Shown here piece by piece: positions 3,479 to 21,839 of a stretch of 21,933 nt of DNA. Made by a program: the position numbers and the translations under genes. Origin of the DNA: a virus (lineage: Duplodnaviria; Heunggongvirae; Uroviricota; Caudoviricetes). The notes under the pieces are model-generated. The model worked only from the letters and a program-made list of their open reading frames with translations, did no database searches and was not told the DNA's origin. The stretch lies in the IMG/VR virus record IMGVR_UViG_3300046534_001355, one strand, 5' to 3'. Within the stretch, counting starts at the first letter, position 1. The number at the start of each line of letters is the position of its first letter.

Positions 3479-3750
3479 GTATTCGTATTGAAATTGGCGA
3501 ACGTTATGTCGTTACCAGTGACAGCTTTCAGTTTATTCTCCACGAGAAAAAGAGAGCGGAAAGCGGTAAAAACGCCGGTCAGGAATGGCTGGCGGTGGTT
3601 GGTTATTACCCGAAATTAAGCCAGCTCGTTTCCGGCCTGATGCATCACGATATTCTTACCGGAAGCGCAAAGTCTTTTGCTGATTTAAACGCGCAGGTTG
3701 AGCAACTCAGCAAGCGTTGTTCAGAGGCTTTTGGCTCATATGGCCGTTAA
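3475..3750 (+). CDS. Hypothetical early-operon protein (P2 orf83 region)
   Basis: 91-aa ORF overlapping the start of A. Confidence 0.5.
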   Translation: MSIRIEIGERYVVTSDSFQFILHEKKRAESGKNAGQEWLAVVGYYPKLSQLVSGLMHHDILTGSAKSFADLNAQVEQLSKRCSEAFGSYGR

Positions 3751-6022
3751 AGCCTCCGGGCGTTTTGTCCCTCCGTCAGCATTTGCCGCAGGCACCGGTA
3801 AGACGTTTACCGGTGCTTATGCATGGAACGCGCCACGCGAGGCCGTCGGGCGCGAAAGACCCCTTACACGTGACGAGATGCGTCAGGTGCAAGGTGTTTT
3901 ATCCACGATTAACCGCCTGCCTTACTTTTTGCGCTCGCTGTTTACTTCACACTATGACTACATCCGGCGCAATAAAAGCCCGGTGCACGGGTTTTATTTC
4001 CTCACATCCACTTTTCAGCGTCGTTTATGGCCGCGCATTGAGCGTGTGAATCAGCGCCATGAAATGAACACCGACGCGTCGTTGCTGTTTCTGGCAGAGC
4101 GTGACCACTATGCGCGCCTGCCGGGAATGAATGACAAGGAGCTGAAAAAGTTTGCCGCCCGTATCTCATCGCAGCTTTTCATGATGTATGAGGAACTCAG
4201 CGATGCCTGGGTGGATGCACATGGCGAAAAAGAATCGCTGTTTACGGATGAGGCGCAGGCTCACCTCTATGGTCATGTTGCTGGCGCTGCACGTGCTTTC
4301 AATATTTCCCCGCTTTACTGGAAAAAATACCGTAAAGGACAGATGACCACGAGGCAGGCATATTCTGCCATTGCCCGTCTGTTTAACGATGAGTGGTGGA
4401 CTCATCAGCTCAAAGGCCAGCGTATGCGCTGGCATGAGGCGTTACTGATTGCTGTCGGGGAGGTCAATAAAGACCGTTCTCCTTATGCCAGTAAACATGC
4501 CATTCGTGATGTGCGTGCACGCCGCCAGGCAAATCTGGAATTTCTTAAATCGTGTGATCTCGAAAACAGGGAAACCGGCGAGCGCATCGACCTTATCAGT
4601 AAGGTGATGGGCAGTATTTCTAATCCTGAAATTCGCCGGATGGAGCTGATGAACACCATTGCCGGTATTGAGCGTTACGCCGCAGCAGAGGGTGATGTGG
4701 GGATGTTTATCACGCTGACCGCGCCGTCAAAGTATCACCCGACACGTCAGGTTGGAAAAGGCGAAAGTAAAACCGTCCAGCTAAATCACGGCTGGAACGA
4801 TGAGGCATTTAATCCAAAGGATGCGCAGCGTTATCTCTGCCGTATCTGGAGCCTGATGCGCACGGCATTCAAGGATAATGATTTACAGGTCTACGGTTTG
4901 CGTGTCGTCGAGCCACATCACGACGGAACGCCGCACTGGCATATGATGCTTTTTTGTAATCCGCGCCAGCGTAACCAGATTATCGAAATCATGCGTCGCT
5001 ATGCGCTCAAAGAGGATGGCGACGAAAGAGGAGCCGCGCGAAACCGTTTTCAGGCAAAACACCTTAATCGGGGCGGTGCTGCGGGGTATATCGCGAAATA
5101 CATCTCAAAAAACATCGACGGCTATGCACTGGATGGTCAGCTCGATAACGATACCGGCAGACCTCTGAAAGATACTGCCGCGGCTGTTACTGCATGGGCG
5201 TCAACGTGGCGCATCCCGCAATTTAAAACGGTTGGTCTGCCGACAATGGGGGCTTACCGTGAACTACGCAAATTGCCTCGCGGCGTCAGCATTGCTGATG
5301 AGTTTGACGAACGCGTCGAGGCTGCACGCGCTGCCGCAGACAGTGGCGATTTTGCGTTGTATATCAGTGCGCAGGGTGGGGCAAATGTTCCGCGCGATTG
5401 CCAGACTGTCAGAGTCGCCCGTAGCCCGTCGGATGAAGTTAACGAGTACGAGGAAGAAGTCGAGAGAGTGGTCGGCATTTACGCGCCGCATCTCGGCGCG
5501 CGTCATATTCATATCACCAGAACGACGGACTGGCGCATTGTGCCGAAAGTTCCGGTCGTGGAGCCTTTGACTTTAAAAAGCGGCATCGCCGCGCCTCGGA
5601 GTCCTGTCAATAACTGTGGAAAGCTCACCGGTGGTGATACTTCGTTATCGGCTCCCACACCGACTGAGCATGCTGCAGCGGTGTTAAATTTTATAGATGA
5701 AGGGATTCTAAGTTGGACCGAGCCAGGCATTATGAAGGTACTTAGAGACTTATTGAGTAATGAACTGAAATGCAGTAATCGTTCACAGCAGAGCTTTACT
5801 CCTTTCAATGGTCGAAGCTACTTTCCTGCCCCATCCGCCCGGTTGACAAGGCAGGAGAGAAAGACTATCCCGAAAATTAAGGTTCTTCTTGCACAAAGTG
5901 ACATTCAGGCTAGTTATTGGGAGCTTGAAGCTCTCGCTCGCGGAGCTGTTTTGGATTTTGGGCATAAGCGTTTTAAATTTGATACCGATATCGACTTTTT
6001 TGACAGACAGCGTGAGTGGTAG
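3740..6022 (+). CDS. A: Replication initiation protein A (rolling-circle nickase), divergent AT-rich 3' end
   Basis: Start taken at MAVKASGRF (ATG 3740), not the track start 3698. HUH-like motif PHWHMMLF and two-tyrosine motif GYIAKYISK seen. The last ~110 codons (from about 5690) are clearly more AT-rich than the rest. Confidence 0.88.
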   Translation: MAVKASGRFVPPSAFAAGTGKTFTGAYAWNAPREAVGRERPLTRDEMRQVQGVLSTINRLPYFLRSLFTSHYDYIRRNKSPVHGFYFLTSTFQRRLWPRIERVNQRHEMNTDASLLFLAERDHYARLPGMNDKELKKFAARISSQLFMMYEELSDAWVDAHGEKESLFTDEAQAHLYGHVAGAARAFNISPLYWKKYRKGQMTTRQAYSAIARLFNDEWWTHQLKGQRMRWHEALLIAVGEVNKDRSPYASKHAIRDVRARRQANLEFLKSCDLENRETGERIDLISKVMGSISNPEIRRMELMNTIAGIERYAAAEGDVGMFITLTAPSKYHPTRQVGKGESKTVQLNHGWNDEAFNPKDAQRYLCRIWSLMRTAFKDNDLQVYGLRVVEPHHDGTPHWHMMLFCNPRQRNQIIEIMRRYALKEDGDERGAARNRFQAKHLNRGGAAGYIAKYISKNIDGYALDGQLDNDTGRPLKDTAAAVTAWASTWRIPQFKTVGLPTMGAYRELRKLPRGVSIADEFDERVEAARAAADSGDFALYISAQGGANVPRDCQTVRVARSPSDEVNEYEEEVERVVGIYAPHLGARHIHITRTTDWRIVPKVPVVEPLTLKSGIAAPRSPVNNCGKLTGGDTSLSAPTPTEHAAAVLNFIDEGILSWTEPGIMKVLRDLLSNELKCSNRSQQSFTPFNGRSYFPAPSARLTRQERKTIPKIKVLLAQSDIQASYWELEALARGAVLDFGHKRFKFDTDIDFFDRQREW

Positions 6023-6110
6023 TTGAAAAAACGGTTGAACGGGGTAACAATATGTTATTGTTGAGGAATTGTTTGTTATGGTTTAATTTTTATACACGGC
6101 AGAAAAGCAT

Positions 6111-7334
6111 ATGAGCATGGTTGAATGGATAAGCCACGAGAAAAAAGATAGCCTGATACTATTTGTACATGGATTAAATGGTGGTTTGGAAACATGGAAC
6201 TTTAATAAAGAAATTTCATTTCCAAAACTATTAGCAGAAGATGAAGATATTAGCAACGTATTTGATATTGCATGTTTCAATTATTTTACTAAATTCACAC
6301 AAACGTATGCTAAAACGTCAGGATTCTTGGCTCGTATTTTCTTTAAGAAAAATAAGTTAGAGAGAAATTTACCAACTGATGAAATAGCTGAGTTATTGTA
6401 TACTGAGATTAGAGTAACACTAAGTGATTACTCTCGAATTATAATAATCGCCCATAGTATGGGGGGGTTAATATCAAAAAATCTAATTCTAAAAAAAGTT
6501 GAGCATGAGGAACAATCTAATATAATTGGATTCATTTCGTTAGCAGTCCCTCACTTTGGTGCTAAATTAGCGAATATAACTTCAATGGTATCTTCAAATG
6601 CTCAGTTAGTAGATCTTGGATTGTTAAGTGAAGCGACTGATACATTGAATAGGCGCTGGATAAATTGTAGCAAAAAACTTCCTATCACTAGATATGTTTA
6701 TGGATCTCATGACACTATAGTCGATAAAAAAAGCGCATTACCGATGGATAGTGAACGACATAACTCAATTGCAGTTAATGAAGGGCATAGCTCAATTTGC
6801 AAGCCCGAAAATAGCTCGTCTACAGTGTTTGTTGCGGTAAAGCAATTTATTCAGCAGATAAATTTAGAAGCACCCAAGAAGATTTGCGTTGAGCGTTTTT
6901 CTGATGATAAACAATATGATAATGAGTATTTCGTCTTAAAAATGATTGTCGCAGATATACATCAGGATATCGCTCTGCATGCAAAGGAATATTATTATAA
7001 TGCTGAGCTTGCGAGAAATATTTTTACGAGTGATTACGATAGAAAACAACTTGGTCATTTGTATTCTAAAATAAGGGAGATTTACCAGGAAGAGTATGAG
7101 CAATACATTGCAAATTCAATTTCCCCAGATAAATTTATTGCTGCTGTTCATAGACGAATAACCCAGGAGGATAAGTCGTCGTTAGATTCTCTTATAAAAA
7201 GTTTGGAAACGATACATAAGAAAGGAATGTTGCATCAACTGGCTAACAAAAATGACAGGGATATTGTCTGGTCATCTGAAACCAGCGTAGAAACTTTGGA
7301 GCAATTACGGCGAGGTAATCATGAAGAAAAATAA
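6111..7334 (+). CDS. Lipase-like alpha/beta hydrolase fused to a C-terminal helical domain; candidate defence effector (LmuA-like position)
   Basis: FVHGLNGG oxyanion-hole-like motif; nucleophile elbow AHSMGG (Ser116, nt 6456-6458), identical to the Bacillus lipase A pentapeptide; later GSHDTIVD and EGHSSI supply candidate Asp/His. AT-rich; first gene of a 3-gene overlapping operon. Confidence 0.7.
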   Translation: MSMVEWISHEKKDSLILFVHGLNGGLETWNFNKEISFPKLLAEDEDISNVFDIACFNYFTKFTQTYAKTSGFLARIFFKKNKLERNLPTDEIAELLYTEIRVTLSDYSRIIIIAHSMGGLISKNLILKKVEHEEQSNIIGFISLAVPHFGAKLANITSMVSSNAQLVDLGLLSEATDTLNRRWINCSKKLPITRYVYGSHDTIVDKKSALPMDSERHNSIAVNEGHSSICKPENSSSTVFVAVKQFIQQINLEAPKKICVERFSDDKQYDNEYFVLKMIVADIHQDIALHAKEYYYNAELARNIFTSDYDRKQLGHLYSKIREIYQEEYEQYIANSISPDKFIAAVHRRITQEDKSSLDSLIKSLETIHKKGMLHQLANKNDRDIVWSSETSVETLEQLRRGNHEEK

Positions 7335-7833
7335 CTTGCCGTATATACCTCTTGATGAAGAGTATAGTTTGAATTTTGCTATGCTTGCCATTGCTATATC
7401 TATATTATCTCATAGCAAAAAAGGAGTGTTGTCATTAGATATTAATAAAATACAAATTTTTATGTATCTGATAAAAAATCCATCAAAAATTGATTGTGCT
7501 CTTACAGTTTCGGGGAAAAAGCCTGCTTGTGTCGAGTCCCAGTTAACTTATACAATAAAGAGTTTTTCATCAAATGTAGATATCTTATTCGACAATTCCA
7601 AAGTGAAATATCTTATAAAAATTATGTCATTGCGGGGATTGCTCTCAGCTGAGAAAAAAAATAATGAGAGTGTTAAATTATTTTTATCTGAAAAAGGTAA
7701 GGAATTTGCTAGCTCATTGACTGATGGATATTTTAAAGAAATAAAACGACTAGCCGAAGCATTGTTACCGCTACAAGCATTGCCTACCTCTAAGTTAAAC
7801 TCTGTTATAAACAAAGTCTTCAAGGAGAAATGA
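7321..7833 (+). CDS. Small middle-gene protein of the operon (LmuC-like position)
   Basis: 170-aa ORF overlapping the upstream stop by 14 nt and the downstream start by 4 nt (ATGA), implying translational coupling; no recognisable motifs. Confidence 0.55.
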   Translation: MKKNNLPYIPLDEEYSLNFAMLAIAISILSHSKKGVLSLDINKIQIFMYLIKNPSKIDCALTVSGKKPACVESQLTYTIKSFSSNVDILFDNSKVKYLIKIMSLRGLLSAEKKNNESVKLFLSEKGKEFASSLTDGYFKEIKRLAEALLPLQALPTSKLNSVINKVFKEK

Positions 7834-9800
7834 TGAAATCATATCTCAATATCAATAGTTTGATTCTTGTTGGCGTTCGTAAAAACTACGTCACTACTTT
7901 TTATAAAGGTCTCAATGTTATCTACGGAGACTCTGACACAGGTAAGTCAAGTATTCTGGAGTTTATTAATTATCTTTTAGGTGCTAGTTCTATAGATTTA
8001 GCAGATGAAATAAAAACATCAGTAAACTATGCTGCTCTTGAAGTAGTGATCAATGATACTGTATTCACAATCGTAAGAGATATCTATGATCATAAAAAAT
8101 CAATAGAAGTTTATCGTTGTAAGTTTGATGATTTACATAAACACTTTCCGAAAAAATACGCTCCTAATTATAGCCCCTTATCAAATGTTGATGGCGTTTT
8201 TTCGGAGTTTTTACTTGATAGTCTTAATTTTCCAAAAATTGAAATTAAGGTGTCTCCTTCTAAAGCACATTCACAGATGCGCAGGTTAAGCTTTAGAAAT
8301 ATATATAAATTTGTTTATGTAAGTCAGGATGATATTGGTAGTAAATCATTCTTACGATTGGAGGATTGGTCCCGTTACGCATTTACGAAAGAAGTTTTTA
8401 AATACATGTTCAATGTGTTGGATGAAAGCATCGCCAGACTCCAAGGTGAAATATCTGCAAAAAGTAGTTTAGTAACGGAACTAAATAAGAAGTATCAGAT
8501 AATATCTGAATTTCTTCGCGATACAGACTATGAAACAATTGAATCAATTGATGATGAGATTAATAGGATAGATCTTATTTTAGAAGAACTTGTTGCAGGT
8601 TTGTCTGCTCTCGATAAAAATATGAAAGCGGATTCCATGCAGTATACAGAATTGAAAGATGCCCACAATTTTATTTCGCTTAAATACAAGGAGTGCATAT
8701 TAAATATTAGCACGCTTGAGGATAAGATTGATAAATATTCGCGGTTAAAAAATGACTATGATAATGATATTGAAAAACTCAAAGCGATTAAAACAGCAAA
8801 TTCTCGCATTGGTGTATTGGATAAGGAAGTATTTTCCTGTCCGATCTGTGATAGCCACATTAAAATAGATGATTCCGATTTTCCATTTGAAATTTCATCA
8901 GAAAAAGATCTTAATGAAGAGTTGAATTCACTTAGTCGACGTAGACGAAATATTAATGACATGATCTCAGAAATGTCATTTAAATTAAAAAAAGAATCTG
9001 GTTATAAAAAAGAATTAGATGAACAACTTGACGAGTTGAGAGAGTTAATTGACGAAGAAAGCCAGTCAATGATTACACCATTCTTGACTCAGAGAGATTT
9101 TTATATTAAAGAGATATCAAAAAACGAGAAGGTTAGGGAGCAGTTAGTAAAAGATTTGAAGGTTAGAAACCAGCAAGAGGAACTGCTTGAAAAGCATCAG
9201 GTACTGATAAAAGATATTGAAACATTAACTGAACGCTTGGATGCGTTAAAGAAAAACGCACCTAGTATGGAAGGCATTTTACAAGGTTTAGGTGATAGAT
9301 TTAGTCAGTATTTGAAGGGTATTAATATCAAAAACAGAACGGGGATAAAAATCTCTGAAAGATATTACACCCCTGTTATAAGAGGAAAGGAATATTTTAA
9401 AATAACGTCCGGAGGTTTGAGAACTATTTCTTCTATTGGGTATCTTTTGTCTATTCTTGATTATGCAATAGACCATAATGTTAACCATCCTTTACTTTTG
9501 ATATTTGATACGGTTGGTAAATATTTAGGGAAACAGACCAAGGAAAAATACTCAAAAGAAACTCTTGCAGTCGAGGATGACCTTGAGGGGATGTCAGACC
9601 CGATGAAGTATCAAAATATTTATGAGCAACTATTGAATACAGTTCAAAAAGCAGAAAGAAAAAATGTTCCGTGCCAGATTATATTAGTTGATAATGATTT
9701 GCCTAATTCGTTTTCTACTGGTGAACTTTCGAATATTATCGCTCATTATAGCTCGGTTGGTGAGGATGGTTTGCCTTTAGGTTTAATTGATGACCTTTAA
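7830..9800 (+). CDS. SMC/Rad50-like ABC ATPase with coiled-coil and CxxC hook (LmuB-like)
   Basis: Walker A GDSDTGKSS (res 33-40); long charged heptad-rich middle; CPIC at res 337-340, the midpoint; ABC signature-like TSGGLRT (~res 526); Walker B-like LLLIFDT (~res 555-561). Confidence 0.75.
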   Translation: MMKSYLNINSLILVGVRKNYVTTFYKGLNVIYGDSDTGKSSILEFINYLLGASSIDLADEIKTSVNYAALEVVINDTVFTIVRDIYDHKKSIEVYRCKFDDLHKHFPKKYAPNYSPLSNVDGVFSEFLLDSLNFPKIEIKVSPSKAHSQMRRLSFRNIYKFVYVSQDDIGSKSFLRLEDWSRYAFTKEVFKYMFNVLDESIARLQGEISAKSSLVTELNKKYQIISEFLRDTDYETIESIDDEINRIDLILEELVAGLSALDKNMKADSMQYTELKDAHNFISLKYKECILNISTLEDKIDKYSRLKNDYDNDIEKLKAIKTANSRIGVLDKEVFSCPICDSHIKIDDSDFPFEISSEKDLNEELNSLSRRRRNINDMISEMSFKLKKESGYKKELDEQLDELRELIDEESQSMITPFLTQRDFYIKEISKNEKVREQLVKDLKVRNQQEELLEKHQVLIKDIETLTERLDALKKNAPSMEGILQGLGDRFSQYLKGINIKNRTGIKISERYYTPVIRGKEYFKITSGGLRTISSIGYLLSILDYAIDHNVNHPLLLIFDTVGKYLGKQTKEKYSKETLAVEDDLEGMSDPMKYQNIYEQLLNTVQKAERKNVPCQIILVDNDLPNSFSTGELSNIIAHYSSVGEDGLPLGLIDDL

Positions 9801-9928
9801 TACTATACATGCATTTTTTTGAATTAGATTGCATGTGGATAATGAGTCTATTTAGTGAAGGGAAGGTTTTGTGTGACGTGACTTTCGATAAAATTCAACC
9901 GCATTAAAACCGCCCCATGAAGCGGGCG

Positions 9929-9947
9929 GGCGAGGCGGGGAAAGCAC
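9929..9947. other. cos: cos site (19-nt P2 cohesive-end sequence GGCGAGGCGGGGAAAGCAC)
   Basis: Exact occurrence of the 19-nt P2 cohesive-end sequence, between the cargo operon and Q, as in the P2 prophage map; flanked by the GT-rich packaging region. Confidence 0.75.
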
Positions 9948-10088
9948 TGCGCGCTGGCGGTGGTGCTGATTTTATTTTTTAGCGTCTCAGCGCGTCGTGA
10001 TGGCGTTTAGATTGTGCGCCGGGGCGTTGGTGTGTCTGCGGGGTGTTTTGTGCGGTGGTGAGCGTGTGAGGGCGTGATGACGGGGTGT

Positions 10089-10110
10089 AAAAAAGCCGCC
10101 CGCAGGCGGC
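10089..10110 (-). terminator. Rho-independent terminator downstream of Q
   Basis: Stem GCCGCC / GGCGGC with loop CGCA; on the minus-strand transcript the hairpin is followed by UUUUUU. Lies 6 bp past the Q stop. Confidence 0.6.
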
Positions 10111-10115
10111 GATGT

Positions 10116-11090
10116 TCAGCCGTTGTCAGTGTCCAGTGAGTAGTTTTTAAAGCGGATGACCTCCTGACCGAGCCAGCCGTTTATCTCACGGATCCTGTCC
10201 TGTAACGGGATAAGCTCATTGCGGACAAAGACCTTTGCCACTTTCTCAATATCACCCAGCGACCCGACGTTCTCCGGCTTGCCGCCCATCAACTGAAAGG
10301 GGATGCGGTGCGCGTCCAGCAGGTCTGCGGCACTGGCTTTTTTGATATTAAAAAAATCGTCCTTCGTCGCCACTTCACTGAGCGGGATAATTTTAATGCC
10401 GTCGGCTTTTCCCTGTGGGGCATAGAGAAACAGGTTTTTAAAGTTGTTGCGGCCTTTCGACTTCACCATGTTTTCGCGAAGCATTTCGATATCGTTGCGA
10501 TCCTGCACGGCATCAGTGACGTACATGATGTATCCGGCATGTGCGCCGTTTTCGTAATACTTGCGGCGGAACAGCGTGGCCGACTCATTCAGCCAGGCAG
10601 AGTTAAGGGCGCTGAGATATTCCGGCAGGCCGTACAGCTCCTGATTAATATCGGGCTCCAGCAGGTGAAACACGGAACCGGGCGCGAAGGCTGTCGGTTC
10701 GTTGAAGGACGGCACCCACCAGTAAACATCCTCCTCCACGCCACGGCGGGTATATTTTGCCGGTGAGGTTTCCAGTCTGATGACCTTACCGGTGGTGCTG
10801 TAACGCTTTTCCAGAAACGCATTACCGAACACCAGAAAATCCAGCACAAAGCGGCTGAAATCCTGCTGGGAAAGTCGCCGAAAATCGCCAGTGTGCATCA
10901 GTTCGGTCTGTCGGAAGAAACCCGGAAAGACGGTAAGAAAATTGATTATCCGGCGCGTCCTCTGCTCGGCTTTACCGGTGAGGATGTGCAGATGATTGAA
11001 GAGATTATCCTGGCTCACCTTGAGCGTTAGTTTTATCCAGGCAGAGGCTGATGCGCAATTAAACATTGAGCGGCCATGCTGGTCGCTCAA
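10116..11090 (-). pseudogene. Q: Portal protein Q, apparently 5'-truncated remnant
   Basis: Minus-strand ORF with C-terminus next to cos as in P2. Only 324 codons (P2 Q about 344), begins with TTG inside a 12-bp-arm hairpin, and the upstream partner P (terminase) is absent. Confidence 0.6.
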
Positions 11091-11101: not shown

Positions 11102-11887
11102 TTATGAGTGATTTTTATTTGATGCTTTGTATTCTACAACCTTCTTATTGGCGTAAAGGAATTTTGTATATGACAGGAATATAACCAGACCTGAAATGAA
11201 ATAGATGAGGGATATTATTAATAATGCTTTTTTTTGGCTGTTATTATCTTTAATTTCCTGACTTAACCATTCCGAGTCCTCCTCGTTTAGCTGTAAGAGC
11301 TTATTGCAGGCGATCTCAGGAAGTGTGTCTTTTATAAATATGTTTCGTAGCCTCTTGCAATCGGCAAGGCTATAAGTTTTATTGAATTCAACTGTTTTAT
11401 TGTTGAAGGATAAAAGAACTTTGTCACTATAAACATAGTACATCATATTTTTATATGGTATGCCTATGGCATCTCTTACTATAGCGGATTGTTTGTTGTG
11501 TATATAACATGCGAAGAGAATATAAATAATGCTGGACAGAATTACAATTATTGTTTTAATTATGTGTGGTGGTTTTGTTATGTCACCCCAGAAGCGAGTA
11601 AGAAAAAAATACGATGTTTTTAGTTTTCCATCAATCAGCCCCTGCTGTATCATTCTCACATCTTCGATGCCTGATACATTGATTCCGTTAATTATTTTAA
11701 ATAGTTGAATGTCGCGCCATTTTTTGTCGAGCATTTTTAACTTTCTGTCTGAATACTCAAAATTGAAATGATGTGCAATAAACCTCATAAGATTACTTTT
11801 ACCAAAGGTAATAAATGTTAATGCTATTAATAAAAATAGATACAAAGAGATAAACCACCACGCATTAGTCACATTATCACTGAACAT
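11102..11887 (-). CDS. AT-rich orphan membrane protein (3 predicted TM helices), unknown function
   Basis: 261-aa ORF with hydrophobic segments at about res 10-28, 107-127 and 222-241; GGAG 7-8 nt upstream of ATG; composition unlike the flanking backbone. Confidence 0.6.
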   Translation of the reverse strand: MFSDNVTNAWWFISLYLFLLIALTFITFGKSNLMRFIAHHFNFEYSDRKLKMLDKKWRDIQLFKIINGINVSGIEDVRMIQQGLIDGKLKTSYFFLTRFWGDITKPPHIIKTIIVILSSIIYILFACYIHNKQSAIVRDAIGIPYKNMMYYVYSDKVLLSFNNKTVEFNKTYSLADCKRLRNIFIKDTLPEIACNKLLQLNEEDSEWLSQEIKDNNSQKKALLIISLIYFISGLVIFLSYTKFLYANKKVVEYKASNKNHS

Positions 11888-14396: not shown

Positions 14397-17255
14397 ATGA
14401 GCACGAAATTTAAAACCGTTATCACTACTGCCGGAGCCGCAAAGCTGGCAGCCGCCACTGTCCCCGGCGGGAAAAAAGTAACCCTGTCTGCAATGGCCGT
14501 GGGTGACGGTAATGGCAAATTGCCGGTGCCGGATGCTGGTCAGACGAAACTGGTGCATGAGGTCTGGCGTCACGCCCTGAATAAAGTCAGCGTGGATAAC
14601 AAGAATAAAAACTATATCGTGGCTGAACTGGTTGTACCGCCAGAAGTGGGCGGCTTCTGGATGCGTGAACTTGGTCTGTATGACGATGCCGGAACACTGA
14701 TTGCGGTCGCTAACATGGTAGAAAGCTATAAGCCTGAACTGGCTGAAGGCTCCGGGCGTGCGCAGACCTGCCGCATGGTTATTATTGTCAGTAACGTGGC
14801 GTCTGTTGAGCTGAGTATTGATGCCAGCACGGTGATGGCGACGCAGGATTACGTCGATAAAGCCATATCCAGTTTTCATCGTACTGTCATTGATGATGTG
14901 GTTCTTCAGCATAAAGTTGTCCACGATATTGACTACGCCGGGATTTTTGACGGTGCGGATAATATGAGTCAGGGGTTCTGTATCTGTGATACGCCGCAGG
15001 GAACCAGAATGTTTCTGCATCAGCCTGTATCGGGTGGCGTAAGGATTGTTGAAACGACATTTAACCCTGACGGAGAAAACGAAAACCCGACGGTCATTTC
15101 GTTTTCTCCCGTTTTCGCTGATATTGGTCACCAGAGTATCGGGGCTGTATGTGAAGACGGTCGCGTGATGCTGTATACCCCGACCGCTGACGGCAAGGGT
15201 GTGAATATCATCAACTGGAATGGGGCTGACACCAGTCTGACAGATGTCACCCGTACGGAGATTTTCACCTCTGACTTTTTTACCGGGGATGAAATTATAA
15301 CGGTGGCATTGTCGGTAGACGGAAGCCTGTTGATTGTTCAGTCAAGTAATGAAGCCGTCCATCTTCATTACAACAGGGATGACCGCCGCACAGTTTATGT
15401 TTTCGATCGCGCTTCTCTGACGTTTAAACACCGGATTTATCTGTCCACCCAGTCAATGGTGTCGCAGGCATTTCAGGGGATGGCCAGCGATGGTCATTAT
15501 CTGTTTGCTTATTACGGTTATACAGGCGTATTTCTGACTCACCGCATTGTTGTATATAACCTGTCAACGGGCGAAGTTGTCAGACAGTTCAATGTGGATG
15601 GCGTTCGTGCCAGGTATGGCCGCCAGAAAATGCTGGGGAATGCAGAGCTGGGGTATCCCGTTTTGCAGGAAGCCGAAGGGCTGGCTCTTCATAACGGAAA
15701 ACTGTATCTGCTCGATATGGATTTCTGGTGTCAGACAGCAGATGTGGTTTCTTTTGAGGGGGCATACTTTGCAGCACGTGCAACAAATTTTTCTGGCCGT
15801 TCCCCGGTGAATCCATCTTACTGCACGCCTACAGCATATGGAACGGCGGCTGCAACGAAATATGATGCCACGAAGTCTTATACGTGTGGCGTGGCGACAA
15901 AACGCAGCAAAGCTGTGGTTTCCGTGGAGGCTTACGACGGCACAGGCTATCTGGTGGACTCCGGCGTGGCGTTTCCTGACAGCCATGCTAGCCTTTTTCT
16001 GAGTCCCAATGCTGTAAATATTGCCCTGTCACCCAATGAAGACTTCCAGGTGGCAGCCTATGAGCAGAATCTGCGCTCGCATCGCCCGTTATTTGAGGTC
16101 AGAAAGGAGGCTCCGGATACAGACACTTCTGCTGCTGTTTTTCGTTTGTACGGGGATGCGTTCCGAACCGGAGAATACACAGGCCGCTTCGTTCAGTGGA
16201 AACACCGACTGAACACCGTGCACGATTGTCTGGAAATACGCGCTGACGTGGATTTGTTGAGCGGTGGCGGGATTAACCTTTACTCAATGAACGATACTCA
16301 GTCGGCGGGGCGCACAAGGCTTTATTGTACCGATGGCAGTGAGACCTGGTCTGTATTATTGAGTCCGGTCTCGCCGGCATTTCATCCCGACCAGGACAAG
16401 GCAATGAATCTGGGGTCATCGCCAAATCGCTGGAATGTGGCATACCTGCAGGGCGTGAATATTAAATCGGATGACGAAACCCAGAAGCGCATGGCCATCA
16501 GCACCACGCTGAAGGCGGGAGCTTTCCAGGTATCAACAGCCGGGAATCTGGGTATTTATGACGATTCTGCTGACGCTTATGTAATTGCAGCCCGTAGTGA
16601 CGGCACTGCATTCATGCAGATGGATACAGATATTAACGGTGCATTCCGGCCATCGGTTAACAATACCAGCGACCTGGGTGCGCCCAACAAAGCGTTCCGG
16701 AGCGTGTATCTCTGCAACTCGCCGACCGTTGTGTCGGATGCGACGTTAAAGGATACACCGCGCGATGCGACGGCAGCCGAAAACGCGGCATTTGCAGAAA
16801 TAGCACGGCTTCCGGGCGTGTGGCGCTGGTTACAGAGAATTGAGGAGGAGGGCGAGGACGCGCGTCTGCACGCCGGGCCGACAGTCCAGGCCGCGATAGC
16901 GGTGATGGAGAAACACGGTCTGGACTGGCGGAAATACAGCGCATTTTGTCTGGATTCGTGGGAAGCGGAGGAGGCACAGTACGAAGATATACCGGAAGAG
17001 TATGAAGATATTCCGGTTCAGCCAGCGATTTATTCGGATGAAGGGGAGCTGTTGAGCGGGACAACTCGTGTGCTTACCCGACAGGCGGAAAGGGTTCTTG
17101 TTCGCCCTGCAACCGAAGCAGGAAGCCGTTATCGCTTCCGGAAAGAGGAGCTTCTCTGGTGGTGTCTACGTGCTGTTGTCAGCCAGGTGGATTTGTTAAT
17201 GGAACGCTTTGTTGACTTAAATCGTCGTTTGATGAAGTTGGAGACTTCAGAATAA
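14397..17255 (+). CDS. H: Tail fibre protein H, extended (952 aa) with divergent distal part and possible C-terminal intramolecular chaperone
   Basis: N-terminus MSTKFKTVITTAGAAKLAAA typical of P2-type H; much longer than P2 H (about 669 aa); C-terminal region contains VVSDATLKD resembling the S-D-x-R/L-K autoproteolysis motif; no separate G gene follows. Confidence 0.8.
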   Translation: MSTKFKTVITTAGAAKLAAATVPGGKKVTLSAMAVGDGNGKLPVPDAGQTKLVHEVWRHALNKVSVDNKNKNYIVAELVVPPEVGGFWMRELGLYDDAGTLIAVANMVESYKPELAEGSGRAQTCRMVIIVSNVASVELSIDASTVMATQDYVDKAISSFHRTVIDDVVLQHKVVHDIDYAGIFDGADNMSQGFCICDTPQGTRMFLHQPVSGGVRIVETTFNPDGENENPTVISFSPVFADIGHQSIGAVCEDGRVMLYTPTADGKGVNIINWNGADTSLTDVTRTEIFTSDFFTGDEIITVALSVDGSLLIVQSSNEAVHLHYNRDDRRTVYVFDRASLTFKHRIYLSTQSMVSQAFQGMASDGHYLFAYYGYTGVFLTHRIVVYNLSTGEVVRQFNVDGVRARYGRQKMLGNAELGYPVLQEAEGLALHNGKLYLLDMDFWCQTADVVSFEGAYFAARATNFSGRSPVNPSYCTPTAYGTAAATKYDATKSYTCGVATKRSKAVVSVEAYDGTGYLVDSGVAFPDSHASLFLSPNAVNIALSPNEDFQVAAYEQNLRSHRPLFEVRKEAPDTDTSAAVFRLYGDAFRTGEYTGRFVQWKHRLNTVHDCLEIRADVDLLSGGGINLYSMNDTQSAGRTRLYCTDGSETWSVLLSPVSPAFHPDQDKAMNLGSSPNRWNVAYLQGVNIKSDDETQKRMAISTTLKAGAFQVSTAGNLGIYDDSADAYVIAARSDGTAFMQMDTDINGAFRPSVNNTSDLGAPNKAFRSVYLCNSPTVVSDATLKDTPRDATAAENAAFAEIARLPGVWRWLQRIEEEGEDARLHAGPTVQAAIAVMEKHGLDWRKYSAFCLDSWEAEEAQYEDIPEEYEDIPVQPAIYSDEGELLSGTTRVLTRQAERVLVRPATEAGSRYRFRKEELLWWCLRAVVSQVDLLMERFVDLNRRLMKLETSE

Positions 17256-17389
17256 ACAAGCCTTAATGAGTATCTGCTTAAAATAGTGTTATCTACAGAT
17301 CAAACTTTAGTTGATACGAGTCACTGTCCTCCCCGTAACAACTGGAGTTAAAAGATGTGATGGCATATAAATATAACATCAAATAATTA

Positions 17390-17427
17390 TTTTTTTTGCC
17401 CCTCACCCTTAATTTAGGGTGAGGGGC
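17390..17427. other. Strong stem-loop (12-bp arms GCCCCTCACCCT / AGGGTGAGGGGC, 6-nt loop) preceded by T8, between convergent H and GT2 genes
   Basis: Perfect inverted repeat; the T-run is 5' of the stem on the plus strand (A-run 3' on minus), so it is not a canonical hairpin-then-U terminator for either strand. Confidence 0.5.
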
Positions 17428-17466
17428 GTCAGATACAAAGTTAGGAGTATCTGTAGTTAAGTGTTT

Positions 17467-18814
<1,348 letters not shown>

Positions 18815-19092
18815 TATGCAACCTCTAACGTTAATAATGTTTATGAATATTCAGAATGCTATCTCATAACATGAAGCATTATATCTGAACATTGTGACAT
18901 GATTTAATGAAGTCATCAGCACATCATGCTGCAATGCATTGCAGTATAACTAACACGAGGGATTGTTTGCATGGTGATAGTTTTGTTGGTGATAAAATCA
19001 GCATAATTAAATATGTTGGCGTACATTTTGAACATTTTTAAGCAAAGCAAATTATAAGTATAAAAATAGTTAATGTGAAGTTGTACTCATGT

Positions 19093-19122
19093 AAAAAGCC
19101 CCGCATTCTCTCGAAGGCGGGG
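19093..19122 (-). terminator. Putative rho-independent terminator (minus-strand transcript)
   Basis: Stem CCCCGC / GCGGGG with 12-nt loop; on the minus-strand RNA the hairpin is followed by CUUUUU. Confidence 0.4.
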
Positions 19123-19211
19123 AAGATTTGAAAATTAATGGTACAAATTGACGATTTCATATTCTATTCTGTATTAGAATAAAAGTGAATATAATTATTT
19201 ATTTTAGGTGA

Positions 19212-19243
19212 TTTTTTAAAAAAAGCCCGTGGAAGCAACGGGC
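19212..19243 (-). terminator. Putative rho-independent terminator (minus-strand transcript)
   Basis: Stem GCCCGT / ACGGGC with 7-nt loop; on the minus-strand RNA followed by U7. Confidence 0.45.
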
Positions 19244-19856
19244 ATAAAACGCGGAATTGATTAAGATCTGTATAATTTAATTTTCTGATTCTATCATGCA
19301 TATCATTCACAGTGAAGTTGGTAATTTAGTAAAACTAGTGATAATGCCACTCGGTTTGATAACAAGAGAAACCACAGCGTGGTTTCGTCGAACAGTTTAT
19401 GAAGGATATTCCCCCCAAATATACACTCGCTTTGTGCTGTAGCAGCGCAGATGCTGGTTGCTATTCTTACCGGGAACTGGGCTTACAAGGCAATAGTAGT
19501 GTGACATTCTTCATCGCGCACGTGCATATCCTGGCTGAAAATCGATGGATAGAAAATATCCGCAAAGGGAAGCGGAGCAGCATACCGTGGTGGGGGCACA
19601 TGTATGGGGTGTTGGAAGTCTGATGGATTTCTTTGTACCAGACAGCTTGTATTTTCATCTTTTCTTTGTTTCTTTGCAGGTAATTATGAGTAGCAACAAA
19701 TCCTGAATGGCTGGGTATACCGCAATAAATAGAGGCGGGCAAGTTGCCCACTTTTTCTTTATCTGTTGTTTCATCCACTGCCCAGCCAGGTCAAATAGCG
19801 TCTCATGCTTCGCACAACAGAAAATAGTTGCACCCATTAACCACGGAGTTAAACGG

Positions 19857-21047
19857 ATGAGTGACTATCATCACGGCGTGCAGGTGCTGGAGATTAACGA
19901 CGGCACCCGCGTCATTTCCACCGTATCCACGGCCATTGTCGGCATGGTCTGCACGGCCAGCGATGCGGATGCGGAAACCTTCCCCGTCAATAAACCGGTG
20001 CTGATTACCAATGTACAGAGCGCAATTGCAAAGGCCGGTAAAAAAGGCACGCTGGCGGCGTCGTTGCAGGCTATCGCCGACCAGTCAAAACCGGTCACTG
20101 TTGTCGTGCGTGTGGAAGACGGCACCGGCGACGACGAGGAAACGAAACTCGCGCAGACCGTTTCCAATATCATCGGCACCACTGACGAAAACGGTCAGTA
20201 CACCGGACTGAAAGCCCTGATGGGGGCTGAGTCGGTTACCGGCGTTAAACCGCGCATTCTTGGTGTGCCGGGGCTGGACACCAAAGAGGTTGCCGTCGCA
20301 CTGGCATCGGTATGCCAGGAACTGAATGCATTCGGGTATATCAGCGCATGGGGCTGTAAAACCATTTCCGAGGCAAAAGCCTACCGTCAGAATTTCAGCC
20401 AGCGTGAGCTGATGGTCATCTGGCCGGATTTCCTCGCATGGGATACGGTTACCAGTACCACTGCCACCGCGTATGCCACCGCCCGTGCGCTGGGGCTGCG
20501 TGCCAAAATCGACCAGGAGCAGGGCTGGCATAAAACGCTGTCCAACGTCGGGGTAAATGGTGTTACCGGCATCAGCGCCTCTGTATTCTGGGATTTGCAG
20601 AAGTCCGGCACTGATGCTGACCTGCTTAACGAGTCAGGCATCACTACGCTGATTCGCCGCGACGGCTTCCGCTTCTGGGGTAACCGTACCTGCTCTGATG
20701 ACCCGCTGTTCCTCTTTGAAAGCTACACCCGCACCGCGCAGGTACTGGCCGACACGATGGCCGAGGCGCACATGTGGGCTATTGATAAGCCAATTACCGC
20801 AACGCTGATTCGTGACATCATTGATGGCATTAATGCCAAATTCCGCGAACTGAAAAACAACGGTTATATCGTGGATGGCACATGCTGGTTCAGTGAAGAA
20901 GCCAATGATGCGGAAACCCTCAAGGCCGGAAAACTGTATATCGACTACGACTATACCCCGGTGCCTCCTCTCGAAAACCTGACCCTGCGCCAGCGTATTA
21001 CTTCCAGATACCTGGCAAGTCTGGTTACCTCGGTTAACAGCAATTAA
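19857..21047 (+). CDS. FI: Tail sheath protein FI (396 aa)
   Basis: Start at MSDYHHGVQVLEINDG (ATG 19857, GGAG upstream), not the track start 19707; length and sequence match P2 gpFI as I recall it. Confidence 0.9.
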   Translation: MSDYHHGVQVLEINDGTRVISTVSTAIVGMVCTASDADAETFPVNKPVLITNVQSAIAKAGKKGTLAASLQAIADQSKPVTVVVRVEDGTGDDEETKLAQTVSNIIGTTDENGQYTGLKALMGAESVTGVKPRILGVPGLDTKEVAVALASVCQELNAFGYISAWGCKTISEAKAYRQNFSQRELMVIWPDFLAWDTVTSTTATAYATARALGLRAKIDQEQGWHKTLSNVGVNGVTGISASVFWDLQKSGTDADLLNESGITTLIRRDGFRFWGNRTCSDDPLFLFESYTRTAQVLADTMAEAHMWAIDKPITATLIRDIIDGINAKFRELKNNGYIVDGTCWFSEEANDAETLKAGKLYIDYDYTPVPPLENLTLRQRITSRYLASLVTSVNSN

Positions 21048-21059
21048 GGAGCCTGACCG

Positions 21060-21839
21060 ATGGCAATGCCGCGCAAACTCAAGTTAATGAACGTCTTTCT
21101 GAACGGCTACAGCTATCAGGGCGTTGCAAAGTCCGTCACGCTGCCAAAACTGACCCGTAAGCTCGAAAACTATCGCGGTGCGGGGATGAACGGCAGCGCA
21201 CCGGTAGACCTCGGCCTTGATGACGATGCGCTGTCAATGGAGTGGTCGCTCGGTGGATTCCCGGATTCGGTTATCTGGGAGCTTTACGCCGCAACCGGTG
21301 TGGATGCCGTGCCGATTCGTTTTGCAGGCTCTTACCAGCGCGACGATACAGGCGTAACGGCAAAGTGGTTACACACCAAAGACCCGAAACCGCAAAAGCA
21401 GAAGGTAAAACTGAAACGCAAAAAGAAAGAGAAACACCTGCGCGCACTGGAGCACCCGAACGCGAAACCGGTCAGGCAGAAGAAAGCGCCTAAAGTACCG
21501 GAAGCGCGTGAAGGTGAATACATGGCCGGTGAGGCTGACAACGTTTTTGCCCTGACCACGGTATATGCCACGAAAGCGCAGGCCATGCGCGCCGCTCAGG
21601 CGAAGTGGGATAAGCTGCAACGGGGCGTTGCGGAGTTCTCCATCAGTCTGGCTACCGGTCGTGCTGATATTTACACGGAAACACCGGTTAAAGTGTCAGG
21701 CTTTAAGCGCGTCATAGACGAGCAGGACTGGACAATCACTAAGGTGACACATTTTCTGAATAATAGCGGCTTCACGACGTCCCTGGAGCTTGAGGTCAGG
21801 CTTTCTGATGTGGAGTACGAAACAGAAGATGATGAGTGA
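21060..21839 (+). pseudogene. Chimeric ORF: tail tube FII N-terminal 98 codons fused in frame to the C-terminal part of tail protein D
   Basis: Residues 1-98 (MAMPRKLKLMNVFLNGYSYQ...SYQRDDTG) match FII; from VTAKWLHTKDPKPQKQ... to ...LELEVRLSDVEYETEDDE resembles the C-terminal third of gpD; junction at about nt 21353; ogr follows directly, as after D in P2. Confidence 0.6.

Follow-up and report, generated by a model that had tools for sequence, protein, structure and literature searches.

A probable short Lamassu system with a lipase-type effector between gene A and cos in a P2-like prophage of Escherichia coli B

What does the AT-rich stretch between the replication gene and the cos site of a P2-like prophage encode, and is it a defence system? 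We analysed the whole stretch of 21,933 nucleotides of viral DNA (the window), in which positions 6111-9800 hold three tightly coupled genes on one strand (Table 1). We conclude, with a probability of roughly 0.85, that these genes make up a complete Lamassu system of the short type (type II, ABC-3C) and the lipase-effector subtype, directed against phages and plasmids and carried as exchangeable cargo in the A-to-cos slot of a P2-like prophage. The analysis established to which families the three proteins belong, that their catalytic and structural motifs are intact and where in the genome the cassette lies, while a role of this locus in defence (phage or plasmid restriction, abortive infection) would be carried over from other Lamassu systems.

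The original prediction, made from the sequence alone, had placed the cassette between gene A and cos of P2, and this location was borne out by a P2-type gene A on the left and an exact cos 19-mer on the right, 3' of which lies the portal gene Q, truncated and on the - strand. We take the 19-mer to be the P2 cos sequence, and the position between gene A and cos is the tin/old position of P2, a known cargo slot and defence hotspot of P2-like prophages. The cassette was also expected to be more AT-rich than the backbone, in agreement with a GC content of 0.33, versus 0.52 in gene A and 0.54 in cos and Q. The gap between lmuB and cos contains no further open reading frame of note, Rfam at gathering thresholds gave no match in the whole window, and the repeat search over 5950-10150 detected only short two-copy matches, as is usual for AT-rich DNA.

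Table 1. Features of the cassette and its boundaries, in window positions.
Feature	Coordinates	Strand	Basis
Replication endonuclease gene A, P2-type (left boundary)	3698..6022	+	Annotated in RefSeq at the identical REL606 locus
Putative sigma-70 promoter for the operon (TTGAAA and AACAAT, spacer 17 nt)	6023..6051	+	Consensus scan only
lmuA, effector	6111..7334	+	PADLOC, Pfam, homologue alignment, AF2/Foldseek
lmuC, small middle component	7321..7833	+	PADLOC, Pfam MC4, model superposition
lmuB, SMC/Rad50-like ABC ATPase, predicted sensor	7833..9800	+	PADLOC, motifs, family profile
cos 19-mer (right boundary)	9929..9947	+	Exact match, 0 expected by chance (shuffles)

The three predicted reading frames were found at the expected coordinates, encoding proteins of 407, 170 and 656 aa, with the expected overlaps of 14 nt between lmuA and lmuC and 4 nt (ATGA) between lmuC and lmuB, the latter with the lmuB start at 7830. 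The longest stop-free run in the cassette is 668 codons, and shuffles of the same DNA (n=300) reach only 181 codons (mean 89), so these frames are not a product of chance. A GAGG Shine-Dalgarno sequence lies upstream of lmuC. For lmuB, the second ATG at 7833 is the more likely start by sequence, giving a protein of 655 aa instead of 656 aa, because the AAGGAG at 7822-7827 has a spacer of 5 nt to 7833 and only 2 nt to 7830, the homologues begin with MKSYL and the RefSeq annotation is 655 aa long. With this start the overlap with lmuC would be 1 nt and the Walker A lysine would be K38, not K39. The start at 7830 proposed in the original prediction, together with the K39 numbering, probably has to be given up.

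Each protein matched a PADLOC Lamassu model over its full length. LmuB matched PDLC03862 (1.2e-233, residues 2-656), LmuA matched PDLC03851 end to end (1.3e-108, residues 3-406), and LmuC matched its model with 2.6e-52. With Pfam matches to CTD8 on LmuA and MC4 on LmuC, the profile search that had been suggested as a check thus supports all three assignments, and the ORF positions combined with the PADLOC assignments agree with the proposed order LmuA-LmuC-LmuB. The same gene order was detected in E. coli strain 319, Citrobacter, a Logan contig and Pantoea.

LmuB carries the motifs of an SMC/Rad50-like ATPase. In the 656-aa numbering these are Walker A with G33, K39 and S40 (GDSDTGKS), Q166, the signature S527-G-G and a deviant Walker B, LLIFD560-T561; a zinc hook, CPIC at 337-340, is the sole CxxC and lies in the coiled coil. 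The motif residues are invariant across 33 homologues, including C337, P338 and C340 of the hook. The Walker B of short Lamassu has been defined as hhhhD[Q/S/T/E] (PMC12663957), and LLIFD-T fits this definition. The LmuB family profile reached the solved Salmonella LmuB (9hqu_A, 2.9e-11, positions 4-560) with Walker A, CPxC and Walker B aligned, and archaeal Rad50 with 8.5e-05. Profiles were needed for these matches, as single-sequence phmmer searches with each of LmuA, LmuC and LmuB against all PDB chains gave no match.

Such similarity raises the reading that LmuB is a DNA repair ATPase of the SbcC/Rad50 type and that the adjoining genes are unrelated to it. Homologues carry the source names 'exonuclease SbcC' and 'Rad50', and LmuB has weak matches to Rad50, SMC and the SbcC-like phrog_77 models. 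However, the NCBIfam Rad50/SMC matches reach 14-51 bits where the cut-offs are 300-1000, the RecF match is also far below its cut-off, and the LmuB-specific models give 775 bits. The coiled coil is short, the SbcD/Mre11 nuclease gene is absent, with no SbcD-like frame within the cassette, and every locus examined has LmuB together with LmuA and LmuC and in translational coupling with them. The sub-cut-off scores, the missing SbcD/Mre11 and the LmuA/LmuC coupling effectively refute the repair reading, leaving it extremely improbable. Wadjet (JetABCD) and Gabija were likewise rejected: JetC (0.0016) and GajA (0.0074) were the only matches, no significant stretch was found and the partner genes are absent.

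One expected match was not obtained. Pfam DUF3732, named beforehand as a check for LmuB, did not match at E <= 0.01; at this threshold Pfam gave only weak SMC_N, SpoIISA_toxin and AAA_23 matches. Only the family profile reached the solved LmuB chains, whose deposited name is 'DUF3732 domain-containing protein'. The present LmuB clade is outside the Pfam DUF3732 model, and its Lamassu membership is unaffected.

By its sequence, LmuA joins an alpha/beta-hydrolase of the DUF676/PGAP1/LCAT type to an ABC-3C CTD8 domain. Residues 10-208 matched the Pfam hydrolase families DUF676 (2.8e-09), PGAP1, Abhydrolase_1 and LCAT, and the helical C-terminal part matched ABC-3C CTD8 (9.2e-36, residues 265-389). 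The hydrolase motifs comprise an HG oxyanion motif (H20-G21), the nucleophile elbow AHS116MGG, D201 and H226. S116, D201 and H226 are invariant across 40 homologues of 43-91% identity, H226 being the sole invariant histidine in its region, so that Ser116, the residue chosen beforehand for an alanine control mutant, proved to be the invariant nucleophile. Homologues of LmuA fall into 372 clusters in the protein database. Against the PDB the LmuA family profile detected a putative lipase (7x2p, 1.9e-06) and, more weakly, LPLA2, LCAT and PGAP1. In the AF2 model the hydrolase core has a pLDDT of about 90 and the C-terminal domain is of low confidence (pLDDT 35-70); the best Foldseek matches, with values of about 1e-08, were to monoacylglycerol lipases and to serine hydrolases. 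'Lipase' is used here as a bioinformatic label for a putative activity.

LmuC, a winged-helix-containing protein, matched the Pfam family ABC-3C middle component 4 (MC4). Its family profile gave nothing significant against PDB chains, and its predicted model superposes on the solved LmuC chains 9hqx_d and 9ny5_C, with which the length agreement was best. With these components the system type is 'short Lamassu, lipase effector, one Zn hook'. The original prediction had described a type II Lamassu similar to DdmABC; the type II assignment held, and the effector is a lipase-type alpha/beta-hydrolase instead of a Cap4 nuclease like DdmA.

The cassette was detected in 96 of 5426 complete E. coli genomes, always in the A-to-cos slot, and in all 96 carriers it lies directly 3' of gene A, with the cos-portal segment 3' of lmuB. 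This segment is present in about 2150 complete E. coli genomes, of which these 96 have the cassette. E. coli strain 319 carries it in an apparently complete P2-like prophage, and the same slot is occupied by the cassette in Citrobacter and in another P2-like contig. Among 50,697 deposited phage genomes no match was found by megablast or by tblastn with LmuB; the cassette has therefore been seen so far only in prophages.

The candidate promoter lies directly 3' of the gene A stop codon. E. coli 319, Citrobacter, the Logan contig and the Pantoea locus, which has a different neighbouring gene, share the upstream stretch with the TTGAAA, and a leader region of about 90 nt travels with the cassette. 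The consensus scan makes promoter function of this site plausible; in the region as a whole, promoter-like sites are fewer than in its shuffles. To judge from the low GC content and the weak candidate promoter, the operon may be expressed at a low level or silenced by H-NS in its native context.

These properties bear on whether the operon is active in its host. E. coli B has the window with 100% identity, as part of a defective P2-like prophage beside yegR that is crippled by at least two internal deletions. In REL606 a 2-bp (TG) insertion causes a frameshift that splits lmuC, and BL21(DE3) does not have the prophage. Together with the 33% GC, the weak consensus promoter and the H-NS silencing of AT-rich E. 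coli immunity loci described in the abstract of a 2026 preprint, this makes it a real, if somewhat unlikely, possibility that a genuine Lamassu-lipase operon persists as functionally silent cargo, repressed (for example by H-NS) in a non-inducible prophage, decaying and with no phenotype in E. coli B. Against this reading, at least 10 B-lineage genomes and one clinical isolate have all three frames unbroken and with 100% identity (the locus is intact in E. coli B, ATCC 11303 and AS19), a further 84 genomes have retained the cassette lineage with 95-99% identity, one copy lying in an apparently complete prophage, and all catalytic residues are conserved. E. coli B is the classical permissive host for T phages, and we found no record of a Lamassu phenotype in this strain; it may therefore be that the native copy is silent or acts on a narrow range of targets.

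The literature search likewise found no paper linking Lamassu with REL606 or with the own locus of E. coli B. We tentatively propose, as a rather doubtful hypothesis, that ancestral E. coli B, the historical T-phage host, had an intact prophage-borne Lamassu with a lipase output and not a nuclease output, for which its two most widely used descendants, REL606 (lmuC frameshift) and BL21(DE3) (no prophage), would be natural nulls. Were the native copy expressed, perhaps only after relief from H-NS silencing, unrecognised phage and plasmid differences among B strains could be explained by it. The strains would then provide an isogenic natural series for the switch from an SMC-type DNA sensor to a membrane-directed hydrolase via CTD8 oligomerisation, and for how a rolling-circle, cos-ended P2-like phage avoids triggering its own cargo. 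The value of the result lies mainly in correct annotation: the defence system in the A-to-cos slot is complete and already catalogued, so that there is no call to follow up the locus as something new, and the differences among B strains at this locus are useful to know for phage and plasmid work in these strains. For the substrate and the activation of a lipase-type Lamassu effector, the present E. coli lineage would be a convenient model.

Returning to the complete short Lamassu as the preferred reading, we infer its mechanism from the solved Cap4-nuclease Lamassu complexes and from the tested E. coli lipase Lamassu. For Cap4 Lamassu it was shown that LmuA is sequestered, that DNA ends are sensed and that LmuA is released and tetramerises, and in other Lamassu systems lmuC deletion abolished defence. 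By analogy, two LmuB protomers and one LmuC would keep one LmuA monomer inactive through its C-terminal domain, and LmuB with LmuC would detect an invading phage or plasmid by its DNA ends or its aberrant replication intermediates. LmuA would be set free when LmuB, through its Walker A lysine, binds and hydrolyses ATP, and could then self-associate via CTD8. The Ser116-Asp201-His226 hydrolase would attack an essential ester substrate, most plausibly a membrane phospholipid, so that the infected cell would die before the phage cycle ends (abortive infection). The solved complexes are of the Cap4 type with CTD7/MC3 and the present system has CTD8/MC4; the stoichiometry and the activation by oligomerisation are therefore extrapolated.

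The main target may also differ from lytic phages. DdmABC of V. cholerae, a type II Lamassu, acts on plasmids besides phages, and more distant homologues, with 55% LmuA identity, lie beside T4SS coupling protein and ArdC genes in a Klebsiella contig, indicating traffic among conjugative elements. A system directed mainly at plasmids or other replicons, with which the prophage would chiefly keep out rival mobile elements (for example P4-type satellites or conjugative plasmids), nevertheless appears quite unlikely, as protection against lambda-vir has been shown for the tested E. coli lipase Lamassu (PMC12663957). Phage and plasmid activities are not mutually exclusive, and no sequence feature tells them apart.

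The family and the subtype are already catalogued, and this related E. coli example was tested experimentally (PMC12663957). It is the short Lamassu 'Ec-Lipase' (clade H, Zn hook) of Haudiquet et al. (PNAS 2025), whose defence depends on the Walker A lysine of LmuB and on the catalytic histidine of the lipase, and whose overexpression is toxic unless this histidine is mutated (PMC12663957). The present system resembles Ec-Lipase in the species, the three-gene architecture, the lipase-type LmuA with a catalytic histidine, the Walker A lysine, the single CxxC zinc hook and the short-Lamassu Walker B of LmuB. The published mutants are LmuB K42A and LmuA H215A, whereas the corresponding residues here are K38/39 and H226; by this residue numbering, Ec-Lipase probably belongs to another lineage, or else its gene model at least is not the same.

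The solved systems, V. cholerae DdmABC (9ny5) and Salmonella enterica LmuACB (9hqu/9hqx), have the same lmuA-lmuC-lmuB order and a matching LmuC fold, and the logic of sequestering, sensing and release is presumably common to them and the present system. They differ from it in the N-terminal domain of the effector, which is a PD-(D/E)xK Cap4 nuclease instead of an alpha/beta-hydrolase, and in the partner families, CTD7 and MC3 in all solved Lamassu complexes (Cap4 nucleases) versus CTD8 and MC4 here. The zinc hook present in our LmuB is absent from V. cholerae LmuB (PMC12663957). With ABC-3C there is no difference, as this is the earlier bioinformatic name for type II Lamassu: the Pfam families that match LmuA and LmuC come from the work of Krishnan, Burroughs and Aravind, and the RefSeq names of the identical proteins are the ABC-3C CTD8/MC4 names. 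The likeness to the tin/old slot of P2 is one of position and of AT-rich exchangeable cargo, with a Lamassu here instead of Old or Tin.

The mechanical ORF list returned the three plus-strand frames that the original prediction had described as a tightly overlapping, AT-rich operon, and the 14-nt and 4-nt (ATGA) overlaps were borne out on the sequence. The GC content of the cassette (6111-9800) is 0.33, versus 0.52 in gene A before it and 0.54 in the cos-portal segment after it. Long open frames are improbable in DNA of such AT content: the longest stop-free stretch spans 668 codons, against an average of 89 and at most 181 in 300 shuffled versions. The third gene, lmuB, more probably starts at its second ATG (7833), since AAGGAG is spaced 5 nt from this ATG and 2 nt from the ATG at 7830, LmuB homologues begin with MKSYL, and the RefSeq product is 655 aa long.

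Features of the cassette and the surrounding prophage (LmuB residues are numbered for the 656-aa form; all LmuB motifs are invariant in 33 homologues)
Feature	Position	Strand	Detail
Candidate module extension	5800-6022		gene A 3' end
Weak promoter-like site	6023-6051		includes TTGAAA
Imperfect short palindrome	6046-6062		AACAATATGTTATTGTT
lmuA	6111-7334	+	407 aa; PADLOC PDLC03851, 1.3e-108, residues 3-406
lmuC	7321-7833	+	170 aa; PADLOC PDLC03869, 2.6e-52, residues 3-169
AAGGAG	7822-7827		
lmuB	7830-9800	+	656 aa, likelier start 7833; PADLOC PDLC03862, 1.2e-233, residues 2-656
LmuB Walker A			GDSDTGK39S
LmuB Q-loop glutamine			Q166
LmuB CPIC	residues 337-340		mid coiled coil, single copy
LmuB signature			S527-G-G
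LmuB Walker B			LLIFD560, then Thr
cos 19-mer	9929-9947		exact
Portal gene Q with S fragment	10116-11090	-	Q truncated per RefSeq
261-aa ORF	11102-11887	-	about 33-36% GC
Tail fibre gene	14397-17255		
Second AT-rich island	17300-19650		
Sheath gene FI	19707-21047		
FII-gpD fusion ORF	21060-21839	+	FII (Pfam match), residues 4-100; gpD part, residues 144-236

All three proteins matched their PADLOC models end to end. Independently of PADLOC, the C-terminal part of LmuA was identified as ABC-3C CTD8 (Pfam, 9.2e-36), and LmuC as ABC-3C middle component 4 (Pfam, 4.5e-27); ABC-3C is the former name of type II Lamassu. The PHROGs families, full-length for each of the three, are annotated as of unknown function. 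LmuB was not matched by Pfam DUF3732, the model originally proposed for testing it, which reflects the limited reach of this Pfam model and has no bearing on Lamassu membership. According to the profile comparison, the LmuB family aligns with the solved Salmonella LmuB 9hqu_A (2.9e-11, positions 4-560), with Walker A, CPxC and Walker B all inside the alignment, and more weakly with Rad50. The Walker B sequence, LLIFD560 followed by Thr, fits the hhhhD[Q/S/T/E] form that marks short Lamassu (Haudiquet et al., PMC12663957).

The N-terminal half of LmuA matched DUF676, PGAP1-like, Abhydrolase_1 and LCAT (Pfam). In the alignment of 40 homologues (43-91% identity), H20-G21, H115-S116-M-G-G, D201 and H226 are invariant; they form an oxyanion HG motif, a nucleophile elbow and an acid/base pair, as in serine hydrolases. 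The best PDB match of the family profile was the "putative lipase" 7x2p (1.9e-06), followed by an esterase, lysosomal phospholipase A2, LCAT and GPI inositol-deacylase. The AlphaFold model is confident for the hydrolase core (pLDDT about 90) and poorly defined for the helical C-terminal domain; in the Foldseek comparison, the core came closest to serine hydrolases, among them monoacylglycerol lipases. Judging by the nearest enzyme families, the LmuA target may be membrane phospholipid. In sequence and fold the cassette has everything that defines a lipase-subtype type II/short Lamassu with a single zinc hook, and the PADLOC and Pfam matches, the motifs and the genomic position support both the observation and the Lamassu interpretation of the original prediction.

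The window is a prophage adjoining yegR, in which the cassette is flanked by the P2-type replication endonuclease gene A on one side and by cos and then the portal gene on the other. The 19-mer beyond lmuB matches the P2 cos sequence exactly. The cassette is 100% identical in E. coli B, ATCC 11303, AS19 and several B derivatives, and was detected in 96 of 5426 complete E. coli genomes, as one chromosomal copy in every case, with the gene A/lmuA and lmuB/cos-portal junctions both contiguous in 96/96 carriers. The cos-portal segment is present in about 2150 complete E. coli genomes, so this Lamassu fills a few percent of such slots. In E. coli strain 319 it belongs to a P2-like prophage that appears complete and occupies the same attachment site, Citrobacter freundii has the same arrangement in a prophage adjoining clpA, an SRA-derived contig holds gene A, lmuACB, portal and terminase, and Pantoea has a decayed P2 remnant; in Klebsiella (LmuA identity 55%) the genes lie beside those for a T4SS coupling protein and ArdC. 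The cassette was absent from the deposited phage genomes in the collection searched.

About 90 nt 5' of lmuA, including the TTGAAA hexamer of the weak promoter-like site, are kept together with the cassette, even in Pantoea. The palindrome overlaps the candidate -10 region, and its core ATATG, plus TTGT on its right, is kept in related loci; the palindrome may serve as an operator or be no more than AT-rich leader sequence. A 501-nt query (~220 nt from the end of gene A, then the leader and the lmuA start) gave megablast matches only in the 96 Lamassu carriers, versus about 2150 genomes for the cos-portal side, suggesting that the exchangeable module may extend into the gene A 3' end.

The prophage is defective. 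The truncated gene Q directly adjoins a piece of virion-morphogenesis gene S, indicating that terminase, capsid, lysis and some tail genes were deleted, and a second internal deletion is implied by the ORF that fuses the tail tube FII N-terminus (Pfam) to the gpD C-terminal part. The 261-aa ORF, flanked by the S fragment and by baseplate gene V, has a hydrophobic-looking N-terminal region and a full-length match to phrog_2407 (unknown function), with Pfam DUF6535 sub-threshold only and no PADLOC match; 459 complete E. coli genomes contain the segment around it at >= 80% coverage, and it may be another cargo piece (moron). The second AT-rich island lies between sheath gene FI and the tail fibre gene, whose terminal domain is a Peptidase_S74 chaperone. 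In REL606 this island encodes a 370-aa family 2 glycosyltransferase (PHROGs: GtrB-like O-antigen conversion), the frame of which is broken in the window into ORFs of 231 and 96 aa; the islands differ by one base at 18289 and in length within 18308-18630.

Relative to the window, REL606 shows five substitutions, together with a TG inserted after position 7468 (7468/7469; 10419-10422 of the REL606 locus), which frameshifts lmuC, annotated by RefSeq as two ORFs. In the other genomes of E. coli B, as in other lineages, lmuC is intact at 170 aa. Since lmuC is split in REL606 and other Lamassu systems lose defence when lmuC is deleted, we predict that this strain is naturally Lamassu-null. The BL21(DE3) genome, present in the collection searched, gave no cassette match; there (NC_012971.2, 2064588-2066597; 2589-4598 of the extracted locus) yegQ is directly followed by yegR and the P2-like prophage is missing. 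The nearby gatR is interrupted by IS1. In the literature searched we found no link between Lamassu and the E. coli B locus itself.

The identity of the system, its intact motifs and its location are observed here, and we infer its mode of action from published relatives. In the V. cholerae, Salmonella and Bacillus systems, monomeric LmuA is sequestered via its C-terminal domain by two LmuB and one LmuC, LmuB and LmuC sense DNA ends or, in vivo, the replication origins of phages, and released LmuA forms the active tetramer. On this model, the system here would sense aberrant replicating DNA, LmuA would be set free and self-associate through CTD8, and its predicted Ser116-Asp201-His226 hydrolase would kill the cell. 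[quoted passage not shown] PNAS 2025, PMC12663957).

The Ec-Lipase mutants are numbered K42 (LmuB) and H215 (LmuA), whereas the residues here are K38/39 and H226. A second, more abundant LmuB lineage (database entries P0152, P0197 and P0201; about 50-53% identical) occurs in E. coli (736 member sequences), Enterobacter and Salmonella; P0152, 53% identical to LmuB here, has K38. E. coli thus has at least two lipase-Lamassu lineages, and because of the numbering mismatch and the P0152 lineage we do not equate Ec-Lipase with the system here; the two may be sister lineages. The remaining interest lies in the lipase output of the system and in the natural allelic series across E. coli B laboratory strains. 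Taken together, the family (Lamassu/ABC-3C), the subtype (short, lipase effector, one Zn hook) and the carrier (P2 cargo slot) have all been described already, and the locus is a catalogued defence system in a recognised hotspot, correctly identified; the solved Lamassu complexes belong to the Cap4-CTD7/MC3 branch, whereas the system here is of the hydrolase-CTD8/MC4 type.
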